In this document: piece by piece, positions 8,083 through 34,468 of the stretch
How positions within the stretch are numbered: position 1 is the first letter of the stretch
How the letters are laid out: every line of letters begins with the position of its first letter
Source: an uncultured delta proteobacterium
GTDB taxonomy: Bacteria; Desulfobacterota; Syntrophobacteria; BM002
Assembly: GCA_963712115.1 (NCBI GenBank)
Contig: CAVQGX010000020.1
Span: 64,001-128,000, forward strand
Reading direction: 5' to 3'
DNA: 64,000 nt
The notes under the pieces: model-generated
What the model saw: the letters and a program-made list of their open reading frames with translations, nothing else
What the model was told of the DNA's origin: nothing
Database searches by the model: none
Made by a program: the position numbers and the translations under genes

Positions 8083-9348
8083 ATGGCCAGAAAACAGATA
8101 AACCTCTATTCTCCCCGTCCCCGCGGCCCCGTGTCTCCGCCTCGGCGTGATTCCCGTCCTATTCTCCACCGGGCCCGCCTGGTCGTTCCCATAACCCAGC
8201 CGGCCATCGAAGATGGCGCAGTGGTTGTTGCCGATGACACGATCCTGGACGTGGGACCCTTTCCGCTCCTCCGCCGCCAATGGCCTGAGGCTCCGGCCCG
8301 GGACCATGATGAGACTGCCTTGCTTCCCGCCTTGGTAAACGGTCACGCCCATCTGGATCTGAGCGCTCTAGCCGGGCAGGTTCAACCAAAGGGAAGTATG
8401 GCTGAGTGGATCAGAAGTCTTCTGGCGACTAAGGAGAAGTTCGATGAGGAGCATCTGGAAAAGGCAAGAGTACTGGCGCTGGATTCTATTCGTACTTTTG
8501 GCACGGGGATCGTGGGAGACATCAATTCCTCAGGGAGTTTTTCAAGAGGGCAGCCCAATGAAGGGGTGATTACTCAAACATTTGTGGAGGTCTTTGGCCT
8601 TCACACCCAAAGCCTGGAAGTAGCTATTGATCAACTTCCTCCAGCCGCCCGCAAGGTCCTGACAGATAATCAAGAGAGCGTCAGTCTGGCGGCCCATGCA
8701 CCCTATACGACCTCGGCAACACTCCTCAGACAAGTAAAAGAGTGGGGTACGGCAAGGGCCAAGATCATTTCAGTACATGCTGCAGAATCTGAGGAGGAGA
8801 TCCATTTTCTCCATTCCGGCCAGGGTCCTCTCCGGGATCTCTTGGAGGAACGGGGGCACGAACCTGATAGGTGGGAGGTCCCTGGCTGTGGCACGGTCAC
8901 TTACCTGGACCGGCTGGGCTTTCTAGATCCACTCACCCTTTGTGTCCATGCTGTCCAGCTGAGCAGGGAGGAAGTGCAAATCTTGCAGCGGTCCGGGGCA
9001 GGAGTCTGCCTCTGTCCGCGAAGCAATCTCTTCATTGGTCATGGTCTGCCACCGGTAAAGCAGCTTTTGGAGGCGCAAATTTCCTGTTCTATCGGCACTG
9101 ACAGTCTGGCAAGCAACGCCGACCTTAACCTGTTTGAGGAGATGGCTGTCCTAATGGAGGAATGTTCGATTAGCCCTGATGTTGTGCTTACCATGGCCAC
9201 TTTGAATGGCGCTTGCAATCTAGGGATGGCATCCCGCTATGGCAGTTTGGAAAAGGGCAAACGCTGGTTGGCCATCCGAGTCGTAGCCATAGATAGCGAA
9301 GGTATTGTTGCAGCTGGGTGTCAAGGAGATTTAGAATGGGTGAGCTAA
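8083..9348 (+). CDS. Amidohydrolase, probable aminodeoxyfutalosine deaminase
   Basis: PALVNGHAHLDLS, HAPYT, HAAES, CPRSN and GTDSLASN motifs; sits between mqnC and mqnA. Confidence 0.8.
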   Translation: MARKQINLYSPRPRGPVSPPRRDSRPILHRARLVVPITQPAIEDGAVVVADDTILDVGPFPLLRRQWPEAPARDHDETALLPALVNGHAHLDLSALAGQVQPKGSMAEWIRSLLATKEKFDEEHLEKARVLALDSIRTFGTGIVGDINSSGSFSRGQPNEGVITQTFVEVFGLHTQSLEVAIDQLPPAARKVLTDNQESVSLAAHAPYTTSATLLRQVKEWGTARAKIISVHAAESEEEIHFLHSGQGPLRDLLEERGHEPDRWEVPGCGTVTYLDRLGFLDPLTLCVHAVQLSREEVQILQRSGAGVCLCPRSNLFIGHGLPPVKQLLEAQISCSIGTDSLASNADLNLFEEMAVLMEECSISPDVVLTMATLNGACNLGMASRYGSLEKGKRWLAIRVVAIDSEGIVAAGCQGDLEWVS

Positions 9349-11301: not shown

Positions 11302-11460
11302 AAATCCGAAATCCTAATATCTAAATCCTAAACAAATTCAAATTTTTCAAATCCAAATGACCAAAACTTTCAATTCATAGATTTATTCGATTTTATTTTG
11401 AACATTGGAAAATTTGACATTGGGATTTGTTTCGTGCTTCGGATTTAGGATTTCGAATTT
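11302..11460. repeat. ~160-bp hairpin of 7-nt units (aaatccg/aaatcct family), copy 1
   Basis: aaatccgaaatcctaatatctaaatcctaaacaaattc...caaatgaccaaaac / ttttgaacattgg...gatttgtttcgtgcttcggatttaggatttcgaattt. Confidence 0.85.
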
Positions 11461-11533
11461 AATTAAAGCTGCGTTGCTCTGCGATTTCTGTAGTTTAAAT
11501 TAAATTTTTGTGACCAATTACTAAGGAGGAATT

Positions 11534-13748: not shown

Positions 13749-14315
13749 ATGATGCATCCAAAGCGTATGGTTGTGGGCATCTCAGGTGCGACTGGGGTAA
13801 TCTACGGGCTGGAGATGCTCAAGGCCCTGCAAGACCTTGGCTATGAAAGCCACGTTGTCCTCACAGAACAGGCTCGTCATAATTTTCTCTTGGAAACTGA
13901 CCACTCACTAGAGGAGGTGGAAAAAACAGCCTCCCGAATTTATGATGATCATGATCTCGCCGCGCCCATCTCCAGTGGTTCATTTATTACCAGGGGTATG
14001 GTGGTTATACCTTGCTCCATCAAAAGCCTTTCTGGTATAGCCACTTCCTATGGCGCCAACTTGCTGGTCCGGGCTGCCGACGTCACTCTCAAGGAGCGGC
14101 GGCCTCTGGTTCTGGTGGTGCGGGAGACGCCTCTTCACCGAGGGCACTTGGAACTTATGCTCACTGCTGCCTCTCAAGGTGCGGTTATTCTACCGCCGGT
14201 TCCGGCCTTTTATCACAAGCCTAAGACCATTACAGACCTCATCCACCACACCGTGGGCAAGGTTCTGGACTGCTTCCGCATTCCTCATGACCTATTCCGA
14301 CGCTGGGGTGCATGA
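13749..14315 (+). CDS. ubiX: Flavin prenyltransferase
   Basis: VVGISGATG, APISSGS, PCSIKSL, RAADVTLKERR, RETP and PAFYHKP motifs. Confidence 0.95.
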   Translation: MMHPKRMVVGISGATGVIYGLEMLKALQDLGYESHVVLTEQARHNFLLETDHSLEEVEKTASRIYDDHDLAAPISSGSFITRGMVVIPCSIKSLSGIATSYGANLLVRAADVTLKERRPLVLVVRETPLHRGHLELMLTAASQGAVILPPVPAFYHKPKTITDLIHHTVGKVLDCFRIPHDLFRRWGA

Positions 14316-14322
14316 GACAAAT

Positions 14323-14902
14323 AGACACGGGATGAGACGACACGGGGACGCGAGGAAACGGTGACGCGGCGAATAAACAATAGGATCCCTCGTCCTTGCT
14401 ATACTCAACCCTATGGTCTGCGAATAATCCAACTGTGTGAGTCCATAATCATAGTGACAAGCTGTGATAGTATATGTTCATAACGTTGATCTAGACTCTT
14501 GAAGGTTTCTTCATTGATGTAACCGCATCGGAGTGAAAACTCCAACCACACCTGAGTCTCTGCAGCCTCAGTCTCTGAATCGCTCAACTTGCTCACAAAC
14601 GCTGCCTGGTAGCGCCTTTTTCGCCAGGCTTCGGAGAGGTTGGCACAAACCGAGCGCGAGGATTTCCGGATTTGATCCACAAGAGAATACCTTTCTTCTC
14701 TTGGGAAGTTCTTGCTCAGCCGGAATATCTCCATAGCAAGGTCCATGGCCGCCTGATACACTCTGAGCTCCCTATAGCTCCGAATGTTCTGTTTTGGTGC
14801 CCCCATCTTGTCCCCTCCTTTTTCCAATAATTTGACCTGCAAGCCAATCATGTCCCTGTGTCCCCGCTTCTCCGTGTCCCCGCGTCGCCGTGTCTCTGCG
14901 TC
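14323..14902. mobile_element. Candidate cassette: inverted arms of 8-nt GACRCGGN units (14323-14372, 14851-14902) enclosing a four-helix-bundle gene
   Basis: Left arm gacacggg..gacacggg gacgcgag gaaacggt gacgcggc. Right arm reverse complement gacgcaga gacacggc gacgcggg gacacgga gaagcggg gacacagg. Mobility is inferred, not shown. Confidence 0.6.
14411..14806 (-). CDS. Four-helix-bundle protein (23S rRNA IVS protein / Avd-like family)
   Basis: SYRELRVYQ, FPREERYSLVDQIRKSSRSVCANLSEAW and FVSKLSDSETEAAETQVWL motifs; aaggagg RBS before ATG 14806. Confidence 0.92.
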   Translation of the reverse strand: MGAPKQNIRSYRELRVYQAAMDLAMEIFRLSKNFPREERYSLVDQIRKSSRSVCANLSEAWRKRRYQAAFVSKLSDSETEAAETQVWLEFSLRCGYINEETFKSLDQRYEHILSQLVTMIMDSHSWIIRRP

Positions 14903-16188
14903 TAGTGTTTAAACGCTCGCTGGCCGGTGAAGACCATAGTGGCTCCTGCCTCGTTGCAGGCCTCGATCACCTCGAAGTCTCTCATTGATCCTCCCGGCTG
15001 CACCACCGCGGTGACACCCTCCTTGAGTCCCACGTCTACCCCATCCCGAAAGGGAAAGAAGGCATCCGAGACCATGGTGGAACCAATAAGGCCACCTTTG
15101 GCCTCCTGGGTGGCAGCGTCTATTTCTTCTTTGAGAGCCTGGTCCCGTTCACCCTTGTCTATGGCAAGTTCCAGGTCTTTGTAGGGGATGGAGTGTTTCT
15201 CAAAGCAGAGCCGGTCTGCATATTTAGTGTAGGCCTTGAATACTGCAATCTCGGCGACACCAACCCGGTCCTGCTCTCCGGTGCCAATGCCCACGGTGCA
15301 CTCATCTTTTACATAAATTACTGAATTTGAGGTCACACCCTGCTCTACGCTCCAGCCAAAGAGGAGATCATTGAGTTCCTTCTCTGTTGGTGGCCGCTTG
15401 ATCTTGTAAGTCTTTCCCTCGTAGGTGGTTTCAGCCGGTTTGAAGTCTTTTATGCTAAGGATGGCGTTGAGGGGTGACTGTTGGACAATGATTCCACCGT
15501 CCATCAGAGACTTGAATTCCAGGTAACGTTGCTTGCGGTAATCGGTGAGCCGGTCCATACGGGAGACCTGAACGATCCTGAGGTTGGCGCGCCGTTTGAG
15601 GATCTCAACCGTGCCTGCCTCGTATTCAGGCGCCGCCACAACTTCCAGGTAATTTTCTGCCACCAGCTCGGCGGTGGCCTTGTCCACCGGCTGGTTGAAC
15701 ACCACACAGCCGCCAAAGGCGGCAATGCGGTCAGCCATGTTGGCACGATCGTATGCTTCAGCCAGGCTGCTGCCCTGGGCCGCGCCGCAGGGGTTGTTAT
15801 GCTTCAGAATTACTGCTGCCGGTCGCGCATCCAGATATCTGAGGACATTTAGGCCGTTGTCCAGATCAGTCAGGTTGGTCTTGCCCGGGTGTTTACCGGC
15901 CTGGAGCATTTCCGCTTCTGTAATACTGCTTACCAGGCCCAAACCGGGCTGGATAAAGCGACACTCCCCCAGGGTGAGATTGCCATCCACCAGCTCGTAG
16001 AGGGCGGCCTCTTGCCCGGGATTCTCACCATAACGCAATCCCTTTTCAATAAGCTCGCCACTTTTCTCATCGGGAATCTTCCAGGCGCGCTTGCGATAGG
16101 TGAGGATCTGCTCACCGAAGGCTATGGTCATTGTCTCGGGAAAATGATCATCCATGACCGTGCGGTACATCTCCTTGAGTTCTGCCAT
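14902..16188 (-). CDS. purH: PurH-related protein (AICAR transformylase-like domain, no N-terminal IMPCH/MGS domain)
   Basis: LRYGENP-Q, KHNNPCG, AFGG, SDAFFPFRD, QPGGS-RD and FTGQRAFKH motifs. Confidence 0.8.
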   Translation of the reverse strand: MAELKEMYRTVMDDHFPETMTIAFGEQILTYRKRAWKIPDEKSGELIEKGLRYGENPGQEAALYELVDGNLTLGECRFIQPGLGLVSSITEAEMLQAGKHPGKTNLTDLDNGLNVLRYLDARPAAVILKHNNPCGAAQGSSLAEAYDRANMADRIAAFGGCVVFNQPVDKATAELVAENYLEVVAAPEYEAGTVEILKRRANLRIVQVSRMDRLTDYRKQRYLEFKSLMDGGIIVQQSPLNAILSIKDFKPAETTYEGKTYKIKRPPTEKELNDLLFGWSVEQGVTSNSVIYVKDECTVGIGTGEQDRVGVAEIAVFKAYTKYADRLCFEKHSIPYKDLELAIDKGERDQALKEEIDAATQEAKGGLIGSTMVSDAFFPFRDGVDVGLKEGVTAVVQPGGSMRDFEVIEACNEAGATMVFTGQRAFKH

Positions 16189-20520: not shown

Positions 20521-20771
20521 ATTATGAGGACATCGGACTCCATTTAGAAAGACGATTCATTTTTCTAATCAGATTTGATTGAGAGATTCGTTAATCCTTC
20601 TCAGACCTTGGCTTTTGAAAAGGCTGAGGAAAGAAACATGGGCCATTGCACAGGGAGAGATGTAGACTATTGTATTCATCAGGGTGAGAAAATCTGCATT
20701 TTCCCCTTCACGCCATGGGGATAGAGGGGATAGAGTTGAACCACAAAGTACACAAAGTACACAAAGAGTAA

Positions 20772-20845
20772 GGTTTCAGAGTTCAGTGTTCAGGTTTCAG
20801 CTTCTATATTTTTTCCCTGACACCTGACACCCGAAACCTGAAACC
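20772..20845. repeat. Hairpin of 7-nt units (gtttcag / ctgaaac family)
   Basis: ggtttcagagttcagtgttcaggtttcag ... ctgacacctgacacccgaaacctgaaacc. Confidence 0.78.
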
Positions 20846-21958: not shown

Positions 21959-23539
21959 ATGAAGATCTTGGTGAGTGACCCCCTCCACGAGAAAGGTATT
22001 GATGTCCTGGAAAAAACGGAGGGCTTCGAGGTAGAGGTGGACACCAGCCTCACCCACGAGGAATTATTGGGCATAATAAAGAATTACCATGCCCTGGTTA
22101 TCCGCAGCTCCACCAAGGTTACAGAAGAGGTCATAGAGGCGGCTGACCGGCTCAGAGTAATCGGCCGGGCCGGCATAGGTTTGGACAATGTGGACATCGG
22201 GGCTGCCAGCAAGCGCGGGATCGTAGTGATGAACACCCCTGACGGCAATGTGATCACCACAGCCGAACATGCCGTGGCCATGCTCATGGCCCTCAGCCGC
22301 AACATACCTCAGGCTGTGGCTTCAATGAGATCGCGCAAATGGGAAAAAAAGTTGTTTCGGGGCAAGGAGTTGTTCAACAAAACCTTGGGTGTAATCGGTA
22401 TCGGACGCATTGGCAGAATAGTTGCCGACCGGGCCCGGGGCATGAAAATGAACATTGTTGCCTACGATCCTTACATACCTGCAGAGAGCATAGAGAAAAT
22501 GGGGGTAGAACCGGTTAGCCTCGATGGACTCCTGGCCCGCTCTGACTTTATTACGGTTCACACCCCTTTTACCCAGGAAACGCGCAACCTGATCAACCGT
22601 GAGTGTTTCGCCAAGATGAAGAGGGGCGTTCTCCTGGTGAACTGCGCCCGAGGTGGTATCGTCAACGAGCATGATCTCTACGAGGCGCTGAAGGAGGGTA
22701 TAGTAGCGGGAGCTGCCCTGGATGTATTCGAGAAAGAGCCCCCGGGGGACAACCCTTTGCTGGACCTGGACAATGTTATAGCCACGCCTCACCTTGGGGC
22801 CTCGACAGATGAGGCTCAGGAGAATGTGGCCGTGGCCGTGGCCGGCCAGATCATTGATTACCTCAAGAGAGGTACGGTTCGTAACGCGGTGAATGTCCCG
22901 TCAGTAGATGGGGAGGTGCTGGTCAGGCTCCGCCCCTACCTGACCTTGGCGGAAAGATTGGGCAGCCTACTGGGCCAGATCACCAAAGGGGGTATCTTGG
23001 AGGTGGCCGTTGATTATATCGGTGAACTGGCCAAATATGACACGGTGCCCCTTACGGTGTCACTCACCAAGGGGGTGCTAACACCCGTTGTGGGTGATGA
23101 GGTGAACTTTGTCAACGCCCCGGTGCTCGCCAGGGAGCGGGACATCAAAATAAGTGAATCCAAACGGAGCGAGGCGGAGGATTTCACCAGTCTCATCACC
23201 GTGAGGATGAAGACAACCGAGCGCGAAAACACAGTCTCGGGGACTACCTTCGGCAAACAGGACCCCCGCATTGTGCGGATCAATGATTTTCGCCTGGAGG
23301 CACCCCTTGAGGGGCATCTTTTGTTGATCTACAATATAGACACCCCCGGGACCATAGGTGCAATAGGCACCTGTCTCGGGCAACACCGCATCAACATTGC
23401 AACCATGGATGTGGGTCAGGTCATTGAACAAGGTCAAAACATCATTATGATGCGAACCGATACACCAGTGCCCGTCGAGGTTCAAGAAGAGTTGCTCGGG
23501 TTGGGAAATGTGATGTTTGTCCAGAGACTGGAACTCTAG
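21959..23539 (+). CDS. serA: D-3-phosphoglycerate dehydrogenase (type I, with ASB and ACT domains)
   Basis: RAGIGLDNVD, GIGRIG, NCARGG and TPHLGAST motifs. Confidence 0.97.
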   Translation: MKILVSDPLHEKGIDVLEKTEGFEVEVDTSLTHEELLGIIKNYHALVIRSSTKVTEEVIEAADRLRVIGRAGIGLDNVDIGAASKRGIVVMNTPDGNVITTAEHAVAMLMALSRNIPQAVASMRSRKWEKKLFRGKELFNKTLGVIGIGRIGRIVADRARGMKMNIVAYDPYIPAESIEKMGVEPVSLDGLLARSDFITVHTPFTQETRNLINRECFAKMKRGVLLVNCARGGIVNEHDLYEALKEGIVAGAALDVFEKEPPGDNPLLDLDNVIATPHLGASTDEAQENVAVAVAGQIIDYLKRGTVRNAVNVPSVDGEVLVRLRPYLTLAERLGSLLGQITKGGILEVAVDYIGELAKYDTVPLTVSLTKGVLTPVVGDEVNFVNAPVLARERDIKISESKRSEAEDFTSLITVRMKTTERENTVSGTTFGKQDPRIVRINDFRLEAPLEGHLLLIYNIDTPGTIGAIGTCLGQHRINIATMDVGQVIEQGQNIIMMRTDTPVPVEVQEELLGLGNVMFVQRLEL

Positions 23540-23542
23540 AAA

Positions 23543-23642
23543 GACAGACGCGGAGACACGGAGATACGGAGACACGGGGTGAGACCGAGTGACGGCGAAA
23601 GAAATATTACATACTCTCGCCGCGTCACCCCTTCGCCGTGTC
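23543..23642. repeat. GACRCGGN-family hairpin, empty copy
   Basis: gacgcgga gacacgga gatacgga gacacggg ... tcgccgcgtcaccccttcgccgtgtc, with a short AT-rich loop. Confidence 0.8.
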
Positions 23643-23725
23643 GGTGACAATGGACAGGCAATGGGGAAGGGGAATTAGAATAGCTGCCAGAAGTTTCGAG
23701 ATTGAAACCAAAGGGGTATGAAAAC

Positions 23726-30965: not shown

Positions 30966-31997
30966 GTGAGCATTGCCCAGACTATCTTGCGTTTGCTTTT
31001 GGTCGTTGTTTGTTCGGTGAGCGGCTATATACTGGCGTCTTACCTGCAACCTCTGCAGACCTGGGGCATCTGGATCAAATTGGCGGGGACACTTACCGGA
31101 TTCATTTTTGCACTCCTAGCATTATCCATAGAAAAAATAATTAAGAAAGCACCCCTCAAGGTGATCCTGGGCGGTACATTCGGTCTCGTTTTAGGGTTGG
31201 TAATCGCTCAACTGCTCGGCTATATTTTCAGCGGCCTGCAGAATCATGCCATCCGCGTCTCAGCCTCTGTAATCCTGAGTTGTTCCTTCGGTTACATCGG
31301 CTTGGTGTTGGGGGGCAAGAAAATAGAGGAAATCAAGTGGCCGGGTTGGAGCCTCTTTACCAAAGGGTCGCTCAAAAGAAGTGGCGGCAAGATTCTCGAT
31401 ACCAGTGTCATTATAGATGGGCGCATTGCCGACATTTGTGAAACCGATTTTTTGGAAGGGCCACTGGTTGTCCCCCAGTTTGTTCTGCAGGAACTTCAGC
31501 ACATCGCTGATTCCGCTGACAACCTCAAGCGGGCTAGAGGGCGAAGGGGATTGGACATCCTCAATCGCATGCAAAAGGGTGACACTGTGGAGGTGAAAGT
31601 GGTGGATGAGGATTACCCCGAGATAAAAGAGGTGGATACCAAGCTTATTGCCCTGGCCCGTGACATGCATGCCAAGATCATCACTAACGATTTCAACCTT
31701 AACAAAGTGGCACAACTGCAGGGAGTGCCCGTTCTCAACATTAATCAGTTGGCCAACGCCCTCAAACCGATGGTTTTGCCGGGCGAGGTGTTGCACTTGC
31801 AGATTATGCGAGAGGGCAAAGAGCAGGGCCAGGGTGTCGCTTATCTAGACGACGGCACCATGGTTGTGGTTGAGAATGCCAGCAGGCTTCTAGGTCAAGA
31901 TGTGGAAGCCTCTGTTACCAGCATCCTCCAAACCACTGCTGGTCGAATGATTTTTTCCACACTCAAGGAGGAAGCGGGACAGCGCCGCCAGTATTAG
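30966..31997 (+). CDS. PIN/TRAM domain membrane protein (YacL-like)
   Basis: KILDTSVIIDGRI, RGRRGLDIL and YLDDGTMVVVE motifs; carD neighbour. Confidence 0.93.
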   Translation: MSIAQTILRLLLVVVCSVSGYILASYLQPLQTWGIWIKLAGTLTGFIFALLALSIEKIIKKAPLKVILGGTFGLVLGLVIAQLLGYIFSGLQNHAIRVSASVILSCSFGYIGLVLGGKKIEEIKWPGWSLFTKGSLKRSGGKILDTSVIIDGRIADICETDFLEGPLVVPQFVLQELQHIADSADNLKRARGRRGLDILNRMQKGDTVEVKVVDEDYPEIKEVDTKLIALARDMHAKIITNDFNLNKVAQLQGVPVLNINQLANALKPMVLPGEVLHLQIMREGKEQGQGVAYLDDGTMVVVENASRLLGQDVEASVTSILQTTAGRMIFSTLKEEAGQRRQY

Positions 31998-32061
31998 GTG
32001 CGGTGCAGCCATCACCAACCTCTACCTGTCCCGATTAGACAGAAAGAGGCAAGGACAAACA

Positions 32062-32166
32062 GACGACGGCGACACGGTGAAGACGGCGATACGGAGAAAG
32101 AGTAAGCTTGCTATTAAGTATGTCAAATTTTTCTCCGTGTCTCCGCGTCATCCCGTCGCCGTTGTC
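32062..32166. repeat. GACRCGGN-family hairpin, empty copy
   Basis: gacgacggc gacacggt gaagacggc gatacgga gaaa ... ttctccgtgtctccgcgtcatcccgtcgccgttgtc. Confidence 0.78.
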
Positions 32167-32181
32167 GACTGAAGGGGGTTA

Positions 32182-33141
32182 GTGTCTGAATATCGCTTCG
32201 CAGTCTCTCAGAAAGATGCGGGCTCTCGCCTTGATCTTTTCTTGAGCCGCATGAGTCTGGAACTGTCTCGGAATCAGGTTCAGCGTCTAATCGATAACAA
32301 CTGCATCCTGGTTAATGAAAAGCCACAGAAGGCGAGCTACAGACTCAGATCCAAAGATCAGGTTCTGGTCTCTGTTCCTCCACCCCCACTCTCCCAACTC
32401 GAGCCTGAACCGCTCTCTTTAGATGTAGTTTTTGAAGACGACCATTTGATTGCCATCAATAAACCCCCTGGCTTAGTGGTGCATCCTGCCACCAGTCATC
32501 GCACATCCACCCTCGTCCACGGCCTCCTCCATCATTGCGACCATCTGGCTGACCTCGGCGGGCCATTAAGGCCCGGTATAGTTCATCGGCTCGATAAAGA
32601 TACAAGCGGGATTATCGTTGTGGCAAAAGAGAATTCAGCCTATCGCCATCTCAGTCACCAGTTTAAGGAAAAGCTTGTATACAAGGAATATTCCGCCCTT
32701 GTTTATGGGCGCTTGCGGCATTCTTCCGGGCAGTTTACAGATCCTATCCGGAGACATCCGAAAAATCGCAAGAAAATGGGGATAATAGCTGGGGGCCGCG
32801 AGGCCTCCACCTTTTGGTGGCTCGAACTTTTGTTCGGCGAGGTTTCTTTGGTGAAGGTAGTGATCAAGACAGGACGGACACATCAAATCAGAGTGCACTT
32901 TGCCCATGCCCGTCATCCTGTAGTTGGTGACGCCACCTATGGCGGCAAGAAAAGGGTTAAATCTGTGCAAAACCCCCTGATGCGGGCTCGATTGAGCAAA
33001 GTGAAGCGCCAGATGCTCCACGCCCGCAGGTTGGCGCTTGAGCATCCTGCTACTGGCGAAAAACTCGATCTGTCGACCCCGTTGCCTGAAGATATGAGCG
33101 AACTATTGCGATTTTTGCGGAAGTATGGGAGTGAAAAGTAG
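32182..33141 (+). CDS. rluD: RluA-family 23S rRNA pseudouridine synthase
   Basis: S4 domain, NKPPGLVVHP, RPGIVHRLDKDTSG and GRTHQIRVH motifs. Confidence 0.9.
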   Translation: MSEYRFAVSQKDAGSRLDLFLSRMSLELSRNQVQRLIDNNCILVNEKPQKASYRLRSKDQVLVSVPPPPLSQLEPEPLSLDVVFEDDHLIAINKPPGLVVHPATSHRTSTLVHGLLHHCDHLADLGGPLRPGIVHRLDKDTSGIIVVAKENSAYRHLSHQFKEKLVYKEYSALVYGRLRHSSGQFTDPIRRHPKNRKKMGIIAGGREASTFWWLELLFGEVSLVKVVIKTGRTHQIRVHFAHARHPVVGDATYGGKKRVKSVQNPLMRARLSKVKRQMLHARRLALEHPATGEKLDLSTPLPEDMSELLRFLRKYGSEK

Positions 33142-33443: not shown

Positions 33444-34088
33444 ATGCTAAAGGTTGGCCTGACCGGTGGAATAGCTTCCGGGAAAAGCACAGTGTCCAGA
33501 ATCTTTGCCAGTTTTGGGGCAAAGGTTCTCGATGCCGACGAGGTCGCCCGGGAGGTATTGCTACCCGGACAGCCAGCATGGACAAGGCTGCGGCAAGTGT
33601 TTGGGCAGGAATTTTTTCATCCCGACGGCACAGTTAAACGAAAACAACTGCGCAAACTGGTTTTTGCCGATCCAGAAAAGCGAAGCCAGCTAAATGCAAT
33701 TGTGCACCCTGAAGTGATGAAAGAAATAAACCGCAGATCTGAAATCTTGTCCTCCTCAGTTCAGACTGGAGTGCTACTGGTGGATGTGCCTCTTTTGTTG
33801 GAAGTGGGAGTGGCAAACCGTTTTGACAAGGTTATCGTAGTTTATGTTAGTAAGAGTGTCCAGATTAGTCGGCTGCAGCAGCGAGATGGAATCTCGGAAG
33901 AGGAGGCAAAACAGGCATTGAAAGCACAGATGGCTCTCAGCAAGAAGGTGGGGCAGGCCGATTATGTGATCGACAACAGTGGCACACTGGAGGAGACCCT
34001 GGCTCAGGTACGGAAGGTGTGGGAGGAATTGATTAAATTGGCGCGAGAGCTAAGAGGCGGAGAGACGGAGACGGGGGGAAATGAGTGA
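33444..34088 (+). CDS. coaE: Dephospho-CoA kinase
   Basis: VGLTGGIASGKS, DAD, LNAIVHP and DVPLLLE motifs. Confidence 0.96.
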   Translation: MLKVGLTGGIASGKSTVSRIFASFGAKVLDADEVAREVLLPGQPAWTRLRQVFGQEFFHPDGTVKRKQLRKLVFADPEKRSQLNAIVHPEVMKEINRRSEILSSSVQTGVLLVDVPLLLEVGVANRFDKVIVVYVSKSVQISRLQQRDGISEEEAKQALKAQMALSKKVGQADYVIDNSGTLEETLAQVRKVWEELIKLARELRGGETETGGNE

Positions 34089-34272
34089 GATGGGCGAGAC
34101 GGGACTTTAAGCTGGCAGCGGGCAACTGGCAGCTGCCAGAAAACAGATATCTTCTATGCAGAATCATTGCTGTCTGCTGTCAGCTGCAAATTTACTCCAT
34201 GCTCTATGCCCCATGCTCCATGCGCTTTGCGCTATGCTCACAAGGCTGCAACAGACCATTGACAACGGACTC
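34057..34272. repeat. Stacked repeat arms (gagacggN; gcNggca hairpin; tgctcYa arm; caacgga arm)
   Basis: gcggagagacggagacgggg; gctggcagcgggcaactggcag...tgctgtctgctgtcagctgc; ctccatgctctatgccccatgctccatgcgctttgcgc; caacagaccattgacaacggac. Confidence 0.65.
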
Positions 34273-34273
34273 C

Positions 34274-34468
34274 TAGCCCGGATGTTTCATGAATTGGTGT
34301 AACGAGACCACGAAGATGGTCCTACCACCGGGCAACCGTCCCGCGGTACCGCGGGATTGATCCCGAGGCGTACCTGAATGGTACGTCGCAGGGGCCGACA
34401 CCCGAGGACGCACGGAAGGAGGGCCATATCCGTGGTCACAGTAAGCGATTCATGAAAGATCCGGACTA
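34274..34468. mobile_element. MITE, copy 2 (inverted relative to 12893-13074)
   Basis: TIRs tagcccggatgtttcatgaa / ttcatgaaagatccggacta; shared core tacctgaatggtacgtcgcagg; extra palindrome tcccgcggtaccgcggga. Confidence 0.85.

Follow-up and report, generated by a model that had tools for sequence, protein, structure and literature searches.

The four-helix-bundle gene located between a ubiX-like and a purH-like gene in the window is probably the gene-bearing form of a hairpin-ended element that resembles the intervening sequences (IVS) of rRNA and has gene-less relatives at many places in the genome and elsewhere in the genus. The window is a stretch of 64,000 nucleotides (G000:C20:64001-128000) from a source genome of 4.9 Mb that is 94.4% complete (G000). 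The gene is enclosed by inverted arms of tandem 8-nt words, members of the same protein family lie between arms of this design far more often than control genes, and relatives carry the junction in filled, empty and hairpin-free forms.

The cassette gene (14411..14806, minus strand) encodes a protein of 131 aa, which is the only protein encoded by the element. Its ORF (14411..14851, minus strand) matches PF05635 (23S_rRNA_IVP) with an E-value of 7e-32 and 110.2 bits (cut-off 33.8) and TIGR02436 ('four helix bundle protein') with 101.2 bits (cut-off 24), and thus belongs to this family by both curated cut-offs. The ATG at 14806 is the likely start codon and is preceded by GGAGG in the 5' leader (14807..14850, minus strand). 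The nearest solved structures are 2RLD (E 6e-10) and 2GSC (E 3e-9), both deposited with five chains, and the homolog from X. campestris (Xanthomonas) has been described as a homopentamer of four-helix bundles (PMC4990558). For the cassette protein, a prediction of self-association with four copies (alignment A3) gave a median of 0.32 relative to a mark of 0.42. A basic patch is invariant in the subfamily alignment. Comparison with the orthologs from G001 and G004 yielded pN values of 0.14-0.16 and pS values of 0.75-0.92, and among 19 listed metagenome-contig variants inside the gene, 14 are synonymous and 5 nonsynonymous. Its reading frame and substitutions indicate that the cassette gene is intact, functional, and under purifying selection.

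We found no known catalytic domain in the cassette protein, and PADLOC matched it to 0 families of defense systems. Avd, a DGR accessory protein, is a basic four-helix bundle that forms pentamers and, jointly with a reverse transcriptase, binds nucleic acid. The kinship with Avd proposed in the initial annotation holds as a distant family likeness between basic four-helix bundles, but identity with Avd had to be rejected: both Avd models scored below their cut-offs (PF22296, 25.3 vs 40; NF033474, 29.4 vs 80), and there are no RVT_1 (reverse transcriptase) matches in the 94.4% complete source genome.

The cassette is flanked on its left side by the ubiX-like flavoprotein gene (13749..14315, plus strand; PF02441, E 2e-40) and on its right side by the purH-like gene (AICARFT/IMPCHase; 14902..16188, minus strand; PF01808, E 6e-61), which lies upstream of the cassette gene and is co-oriented with it. 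The left arm, i.e., the 3' arm in gene sense, spans 14322..14372, is built from about six degenerate copies of the 8-nt word GA..CGG and begins 7 nt past the ubiX-like stop codon (14313-14315). The right arm (14851..14902; the 5' arm in gene sense) also comprises about six words, which read as the complement CCGYGTC on the plus strand. It includes four copies at 8-nt spacing starting at 14851 and terminates at the purH-like stop codon (14902-14904). Positions 14322-14372 and 14861-14911 are 73% complementary across 51 nt. The coordinates and the complementarity bear out the initial description of a gene placed between inverted 8-mer arms that nearly or directly abut the stop codons of ubiX and purH. 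In the whole window, GACRCGG occurs 22 times compared to 8.0 ± 2.7 times in shuffled sequences, and none of 100 shuffles reached 22.

The word of the cassette also forms hairpins that do not contain a gene. One of them (23543..23642) lies directly behind the stop codon of the ORF 21959..23539 (plus strand) and a second one (32062..32166) between the co-directional ORFs 30966..31997 and 32182..33141; both enclose an AT-rich loop. In addition, two arrays are one-sided: that at 8110..8150 consists of the complementary, C-rich word, and that at 34052..34105, at the end of the ORF 33444..34088, of degenerate copies of the G-rich word. Reading of the sequence therefore agrees with the earlier report of the same arms around AT-rich loops at 23543-23642 and 32062-32166 and of half-arms near 8110 and 34057. 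The hairpin class is not peculiar to the cassette's word, however, and here the initial annotation needs correction. Using TRF and rotation matching, we identified at least 182 inverted word hairpins with short loops in the source genome, which fall into 29 word families; these counts are lower bounds, as the TRF-based detection missed the cassette locus and 5 other loci of the PF05635 family.

We searched the stretch from ubiX to purH in 40 relatives and then read the junctions. In G003, both stop codons abut and no hairpin is present. G017 and G009 contain the same hairpin as the cassette arms, with a loop of ~20 nt and without the gene. Hairpins of other words occupy the junction in G005 and G012, and G007 and G010 carry unrelated genes there (a TPR membrane protein, by reading of the ORF, and a glycosyltransferase-like gene). 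G008 has a different family member (126 aa) adjoining purH, and its arms consist of the word found in the empty hairpin of G012. In G015, an array of the cassette's word extends over more than 260 nt and reaches the contig end, and G018, which belongs to another genus of the same family, shows a short partial stem of this word. In the filled allele, the word variants of the left arm follow an order identical to that in the empty alleles of G017 and G009. Moreover, the ~24 nt past the left arm (14373..14396) align with the short AT-rich loops of these two empty hairpins and of the gene-less hairpin at 23543, and the cassette gene is located between this loop stretch and the right arm. The shared unit order and loop indicate that the arms belong to the site. 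These alleles support the filled and empty pair of a transposase-free hairpin cassette that had been proposed, with empty forms in G017 and G009 and a hairpin-free form in G003; the contrary expectation, that relatives would never show an empty allele, fails at the former two junctions.

Contigs assembled from metagenomes of estuary and marine sediments represent a relative that is ~93% identical to the window. These contigs fit up to 14373 and resume at 14885, with loose ends in between that resemble the loop and arm of G017, and further contigs connect 14331 with 14887 and 14309 with 14898; given the low likeness threshold and the short sides (20-40 nt), they support the genome comparison and are no proof alone. 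The junctions at another member of the family (G000:C18:8263) agree with this series; this second site is filled in G000 and G014. In G004, the outer flanks of this site are those of G014 and enclose a short perfect palindromic word remainder. G016 and G007 have partial arms at the second site, and G012, G001, and G015 have hairpins of other words. Comparing G003, G017, and G000, we saw no target-site duplication at the ubiX-purH junction, where the periodic ends blur the junctions.

PF05635 gave 14 matches at 13 loci in the source genome, all of which lie between inverted tandem-word arrays. The word differs among the copies, and the words found include GGTCAGAG, GTCAGCC, GCATGGAG, GCATAGG, GGTCATTA, TGCCTAAAA, and GCGAGACGA. 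The arms with GGTCAGAG enclose the paralog at G000:C30:124478-124795. We scored the arms by local alignment of the left flank with the reverse complement of the right flank. Family loci scored at least 13.5 in 13/13 cases and at least 15 in 11/13, whereas only 65 of 4059 control ORFs from the same genome reached 15 (99th percentile 16.5; Fisher p 3e-18). The score of the cassette locus is 19.0, and just 33 of the 4059 controls attained 18 or more. The high-scoring controls are partly IS elements and the remainder mostly ordinary genes between two intergenic arrays, such as mraY-like, L18, nusA, glpX, and lspA; when 20 high-scoring control proteins were scanned, 18 belonged to housekeeping or ordinary families and 2 had no Pfam match.

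The same design recurs beyond this genome. A census of 18 genomes of the genus gave 95 family matches, from which 75 ORFs were analyzed and 72 had full flanks; arm scores were at least 15 at 64 and at least 13.5 at 67 of these 72 loci. Scanning one genome per species, we found 75 loci of the cassette subfamily elsewhere, in Bacteroidota, Verrucomicrobiota, Cyanobacteria, Planctomycetota, Acidobacteriota, Chloroflexota, and others. Identity in the best-matching segment was mostly 45-76%, with two distant matches at 30-34%. Carboxylicivirga and Microcoleus strains are among the carriers, and the control genome of Bacteroides thetaiotaomicron also gave a match to the family. After 11 partial or distant matches had been left out, 38 of 64 loci scored at least 15 and 41 at least 13.5. 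Enrichment of arms around family members, which the initial annotation proposed to check, is therefore strong in the genome, in the genus, and across phyla. Genes of the unrelated small GxxExxY family were found in similar period-9 arms at 3 of 5 loci in the source genome, which shows that the arms are not private to the four-helix-bundle protein.

For comparisons of word and orientation within the genus, we used the 67 armed loci (score at least 13.5), including those of the source genome. Protein identity and shared arm 6-mers correlate with a Mantel r of 0.68, a value reached by 0/2000 permutations. Arm 6-mers are shared by all 36 pairs with at least 80% identity, including 24/24 pairs with non-homologous outer flanks, and by about 1% of the pairs below 50% identity. 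AGGTTTC, TGGAGTA, ACTAGGC, GATGTGA, and GATTGCG form common empty hairpins in the source genome, which has no cognate gene for them, and the cognate genes are present in other species of the genus. The orthologs in G001 and G004, which are 74-75% identical to the cassette protein at the aa level, reside at non-syntenic loci, next to tsaD-like and rluD-like genes by reading of the ORFs, and have arms of the same word as the cassette. All three orthologs retain GA..CGG despite saturated synonymous sites (pS 0.75-0.92). Within the word, positions G1, A2, C5, G6, and G7 are 88-98% conserved and positions 3, 4, and 8 56-64% (17 arrays, 50 units). Core retention at synonymous saturation and position-specific conservation together suggest that the word is constrained beyond being carried along. 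Across phyla, the subfamily keeps purine-rich words of period 8, which account for 28 of 41 armed loci compared to 10 of 67 for the whole family in the genus. The number of words per arm has a median of 4.3 and an interquartile range of 3.6-4.6. As judged by these arm comparisons, subfamily-specific words hold at independent sites.

On balance, we favor a mechanism that combines read-through transcription, a processed stem, and a pentameric protein reading its own words. The cassette would have no promoter of its own and would be transcribed by read-through from purH. We detected 0 sigma-70-like promoter sites in 14200-15100, and the family gene is co-oriented with its upstream neighbor at 11 of 13 loci in the source genome (binomial p about 0.011); for the 67 armed loci of the genus, 16 are co-oriented, 4 opposed, and 47 undetermined. 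Promoter absence and co-orientation fit read-through transcription and an IVS-like stem. A 539-nt contig from an RNA library, which may hold DNA, covers 14316-14854 with 2 differences; since the RNA-run data are contigs, ends, strand, and level are unreadable and uncovered parts of the cassette carry no meaning, and this contig, which may end where the assembly broke off at the inverted repeat, is no proof of transcription. When the 611-nt sense RNA is folded to minimum energy, the arms pair with each other (z -3.2). They may thus close a stem of roughly 40 bp around the mRNA, which would be an RNase III-type substrate as in rRNA IVS. The protein, presumably a homopentamer as in its solved relatives, would read the tandem words of the element family to which it belongs, with about one word per subunit, and would thereby control whether the hairpins form a stem, are processed, or propagate. 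To binding of the cassette protein to its word, taken alone, we give somewhat less than an even chance. The gene-less hairpins may be internal-deletion derivatives and could, in addition, be the sites at which the gene lands or recombines.

Alternatively, the gene could be a passenger without any recognition, an explanation that we regard as rather unlikely. The word hairpins would then be the real dispersed elements that are moved or kept by something else, and a selfish or useful gene with an unrelated protein function would hop between like-word hairpins by homologous recombination or gene conversion. The link between word and subfamily could also arise without recognition, if the gene moves only between such hairpins by homologous recombination. 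Several of the observations above are in line with a passenger: the unit order that left arm and loop stretch share with the empty alleles, by which the arms belong to the site and did not arrive with the gene, the at least 182 gene-less hairpins compared to 13 filled loci, the GxxExxY genes in arms of the same design, and the remainder at the second site in G004, which is a clean palindromic junction as expected after hairpin excision. Words are also abundant in genomes without the cognate gene. A two-word motif of the cassette's word occurs 28, 52, and 110 times in three genomes with the cognate subfamily and 6-113 times in 15 genomes without it (79 in the single-contig genome G013, 113 in G008), i.e., there is no clear difference in word arrays between the two groups. 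What speaks against a mere passenger is the behavior of the word itself: its core is kept among orthologs with saturated synonymous sites and partly kept across phyla, where the period is fixed at 8, its conservation is position-specific, and arms vary little in their number of words. In addition, RecA-type exchange works poorly on arms of ~50 nt that are 70-85% identical.

It is quite unlikely that the arms are purely an RNA signal, that is, only a long stem for RNase III excision, mRNA stabilization, or termination, with a periodicity that arose as a side effect of replication slippage and words that no protein reads. Such a role would agree with the pairing of the arms in the predicted fold and with the position of the hairpins, which lie directly behind stop codons and mostly outside called ORFs (165/182, with ORF calls covering 80% of the source genome). 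It would also agree with cleavage of the IVS stem by RNase III, which has been shown for Coxiella (PMC4990558). The predicted folds of the gene-less hairpins point in both directions: the region 32058-32170 folds far better than shuffled sequences (z -9.2 on the plus and -4.5 on the minus strand), but 23540-23645 only marginally beats them (z about -2). Complementarity of the arms in cis, within one hairpin, is 0.54 (n=102) and no better than the 0.58 measured in trans within the same word family (n=862), which shows that compensatory change does not maintain the pairing and that it is the word that is under constraint. A stem alone needs neither a conserved word core nor a subfamily-specific period. 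Furthermore, the 5' arm is the G-rich one in 138 of the 182 hairpins that lack a gene, in 56 of 67 genus cassettes, and in 40 of 41 cross-phylum cassettes, a bias that stem energy does not explain.

As in MITEs and REP-REPIN systems, a few gene-bearing copies are accompanied by many short, palindromic, non-coding ones that are intergenic and share their ends, site presence or absence varies among relatives, and families persist without a gene-bearing partner. Unlike those systems, in which the partner encodes a transposase, the sole protein here is a PF05635 helical bundle of 131 aa without a transposase fold. No target-site duplication was seen, at junctions that are blurred by their periodic ends. 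The loops of most members of a hairpin family are not conserved, which implies that the copies are not simple copy-and-paste products. We consider it very unlikely that Y1 transposases of the IS200/RAYT type move single-stranded hairpin DNA in trans with the four-helix-bundle gene as cargo. The source genome does contain four PF01797 (Y1_Tnp) genes, at least one of which has REP-like inverted flanks (C20:238078-238593, score 21), and the hairpin families are multi-copy and intergenic. However, four Y1 genes face at least 29 word families, we found no Y1 match in the flanks of the 13 family loci (~300 nt per side) or in the nearest neighbor ORFs, and REPs are short palindromes rather than word arrays. 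That a small gene merely happens to lie between two arrays in a hairpin-saturated genome, as the mraY-like, L18, nusA, glpX, lspA, and other housekeeping genes do, has a negligible probability, as it is contradicted by the enrichment over control ORFs, by the same design in 18 genomes and other phyla, and by cassette arms that are orthologous to one hairpin in relatives and not to two separate hairpins.

The closest known counterparts of the hairpin-ended element are the ORF-bearing IVS in 23S rRNA of Coxiella burnetii (helix 45) and Leptospira. These carry the same protein family (S23p, PF05635) in the loop, have complementary ends that form a long stem, lack a transposase and show a sporadic, horizontally spread distribution (PMC4990558). 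The cassette has an ORF-enclosing stem of complementary ends as well, as seen from the inverted arms and the RNA fold, but it sits between two protein-coding genes and not in an rRNA helix. In place of the unique 28-bp stem of the IVS, it has arms in which a 7-9-nt word is repeated in arrays, and unlike rRNA IVS, it has gene-less copies in the hundreds and an own word for each protein subfamily.

The short tandem heptamer repeats of cyanobacteria are known as STRR. Intergenic arrays with 3-6 copies of a 7-nt word near gene ends, which resemble the arms described here, have been reported as TAACTGA in Beggiatoaceae (PMC4679880) and as heptamers in Nostoc (bioRxiv 10.1101/2022.06.06.494920). These sources describe direct repeats upstream of genes, in contrast to gene-enclosing inverted pairs, and report that efforts to identify a binding partner have not succeeded. 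PMC4679880 contains 0 occurrences of 'intervening sequence', 'four helix', and 'S23'. Our search of the literature outside subscription journals found no description of the four-helix-bundle/IVS protein family within tandem-repeat arms outside rRNA. New here are the empty and absent alleles, the genome-wide arms with their own words, the link between word and subfamily in the genus and across phyla, and the at least 182 gene-less hairpins.

The function of the S23p/IVS protein has been open since the discovery of rRNA IVS, as has the meaning of bacterial heptamer arrays, and the locus makes both testable. It offers a natural series of filled, empty, and absent alleles at a single site and a pairing of protein and word that holds at independent sites and past synonymous saturation, and the source genome with its at least 29 word families provides specificity controls. 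Speculatively, the IVS-protein family could be a large group of ring-shaped proteins that recognize tandem 7-9-nt words in a sequence-specific manner, with one word per subfamily, which together with their hairpins would constitute undescribed transposase-free mobile elements. In the same speculative vein, these elements would fill the stretches that follow genes in many phyla, with the classic IVS of rRNA as one special case. If so, the word-reader family would be the long-sought partner of the heptamer repeats in cyanobacteria and large sulfur bacteria. If binding proved specific, the family would represent a natural set of repeat-binding proteins that can be programmed, as well as a novel type of small mobile element.

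One further hairpin family deserves mention. We dropped an argument that tied a recent burst of 23 near-identical AGAGGTC hairpins to an intact cognate gene. The AGAGGTC hairpins have common outer flanks, and at least one of them lies directly behind a multi-copy ORF of 431 aa. The shared outer flanks suggest that these hairpins may travel within a larger repeat.

A second small gene family, GxxExxY (TIGR04256), which is unrelated to PF05635, is housed in the same type of hairpin as the four-helix-bundle genes. Inverted word arrays with a period of 9 flank three of the five GxxExxY genes of the source genome, G000 (G000:C46:9413-9763, G000:C31:229313-229663, and G000:C31:167805-168155).

Among the 13 G000 loci found in the genome-wide PF05635 search, three contain one in-frame stop codon each, the stops being TGA, TAG, and TAA, and may represent decaying copies (G000:C59:7316-7630, G000:C3:31748-32062, and G000:C42:159487-159780). 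At locus L184 (G000:C14:38250-39250), a family gene is split into two parts by an 84-aa GIY-YIG gene (PF01541, E 3e-15). The N-terminal part lies at 192..359 of L184 and matches PF05635; the C-terminal part was matched in the genome-wide search.

Three family genes at locus L185 (G000:C30:120300-126300) alternate one-for-one with a lexA-like gene, a gene encoding 411 aa and the long gene that follows it, with the entire set on the same strand in the order cassette, lexA, cassette, imuB-like, cassette, dnaE2-like. Judged by reading of the ORFs, the 411-aa gene appears to be imuB and its long successor dnaE2, as in an SOS mutagenesis operon.

In the congeneric genome G008 (contig C139), a diverged extra copy of the final ~50 nt of purH adjoins the cassette (L042:40-66 and 590-646). 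This copy looks like either a duplicated target or an imported flank, and the duplicated purH end could hint at the route by which cassettes arrive. In the congener G015 (contig C95), the GA..CGG. array 3' of ubiX has grown to more than 260 nt, reaching the contig end, and the expanded array contains a higher-order repeat (L044:680-940).

The window also holds gene-less hairpins built from two further word families, AAATCCG (window 11302-11461) and AGGGTTC (window 20771-20845), the former being a form of ~160 nt whose loop is conserved. A ~230-nt repeat is located at window 34270-34468 (G000:C20:98270-98468), with another copy at G000:C18:9195-9422; very many copies with 77-92% identity occur across all 18 of 18 genomes of the genus, and one adjoins the one-sided GA..CGG. 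array at window 34052. A 431-aa ORF, probably an IS element, is present in at least five copies in G000 (C63:13543-14835 and at least four more), whose 24-nt inverted ends are identical or nearly so. Among the near-identical AGAGGTC hairpins of G000, at least one sits directly behind a copy of this ORF.
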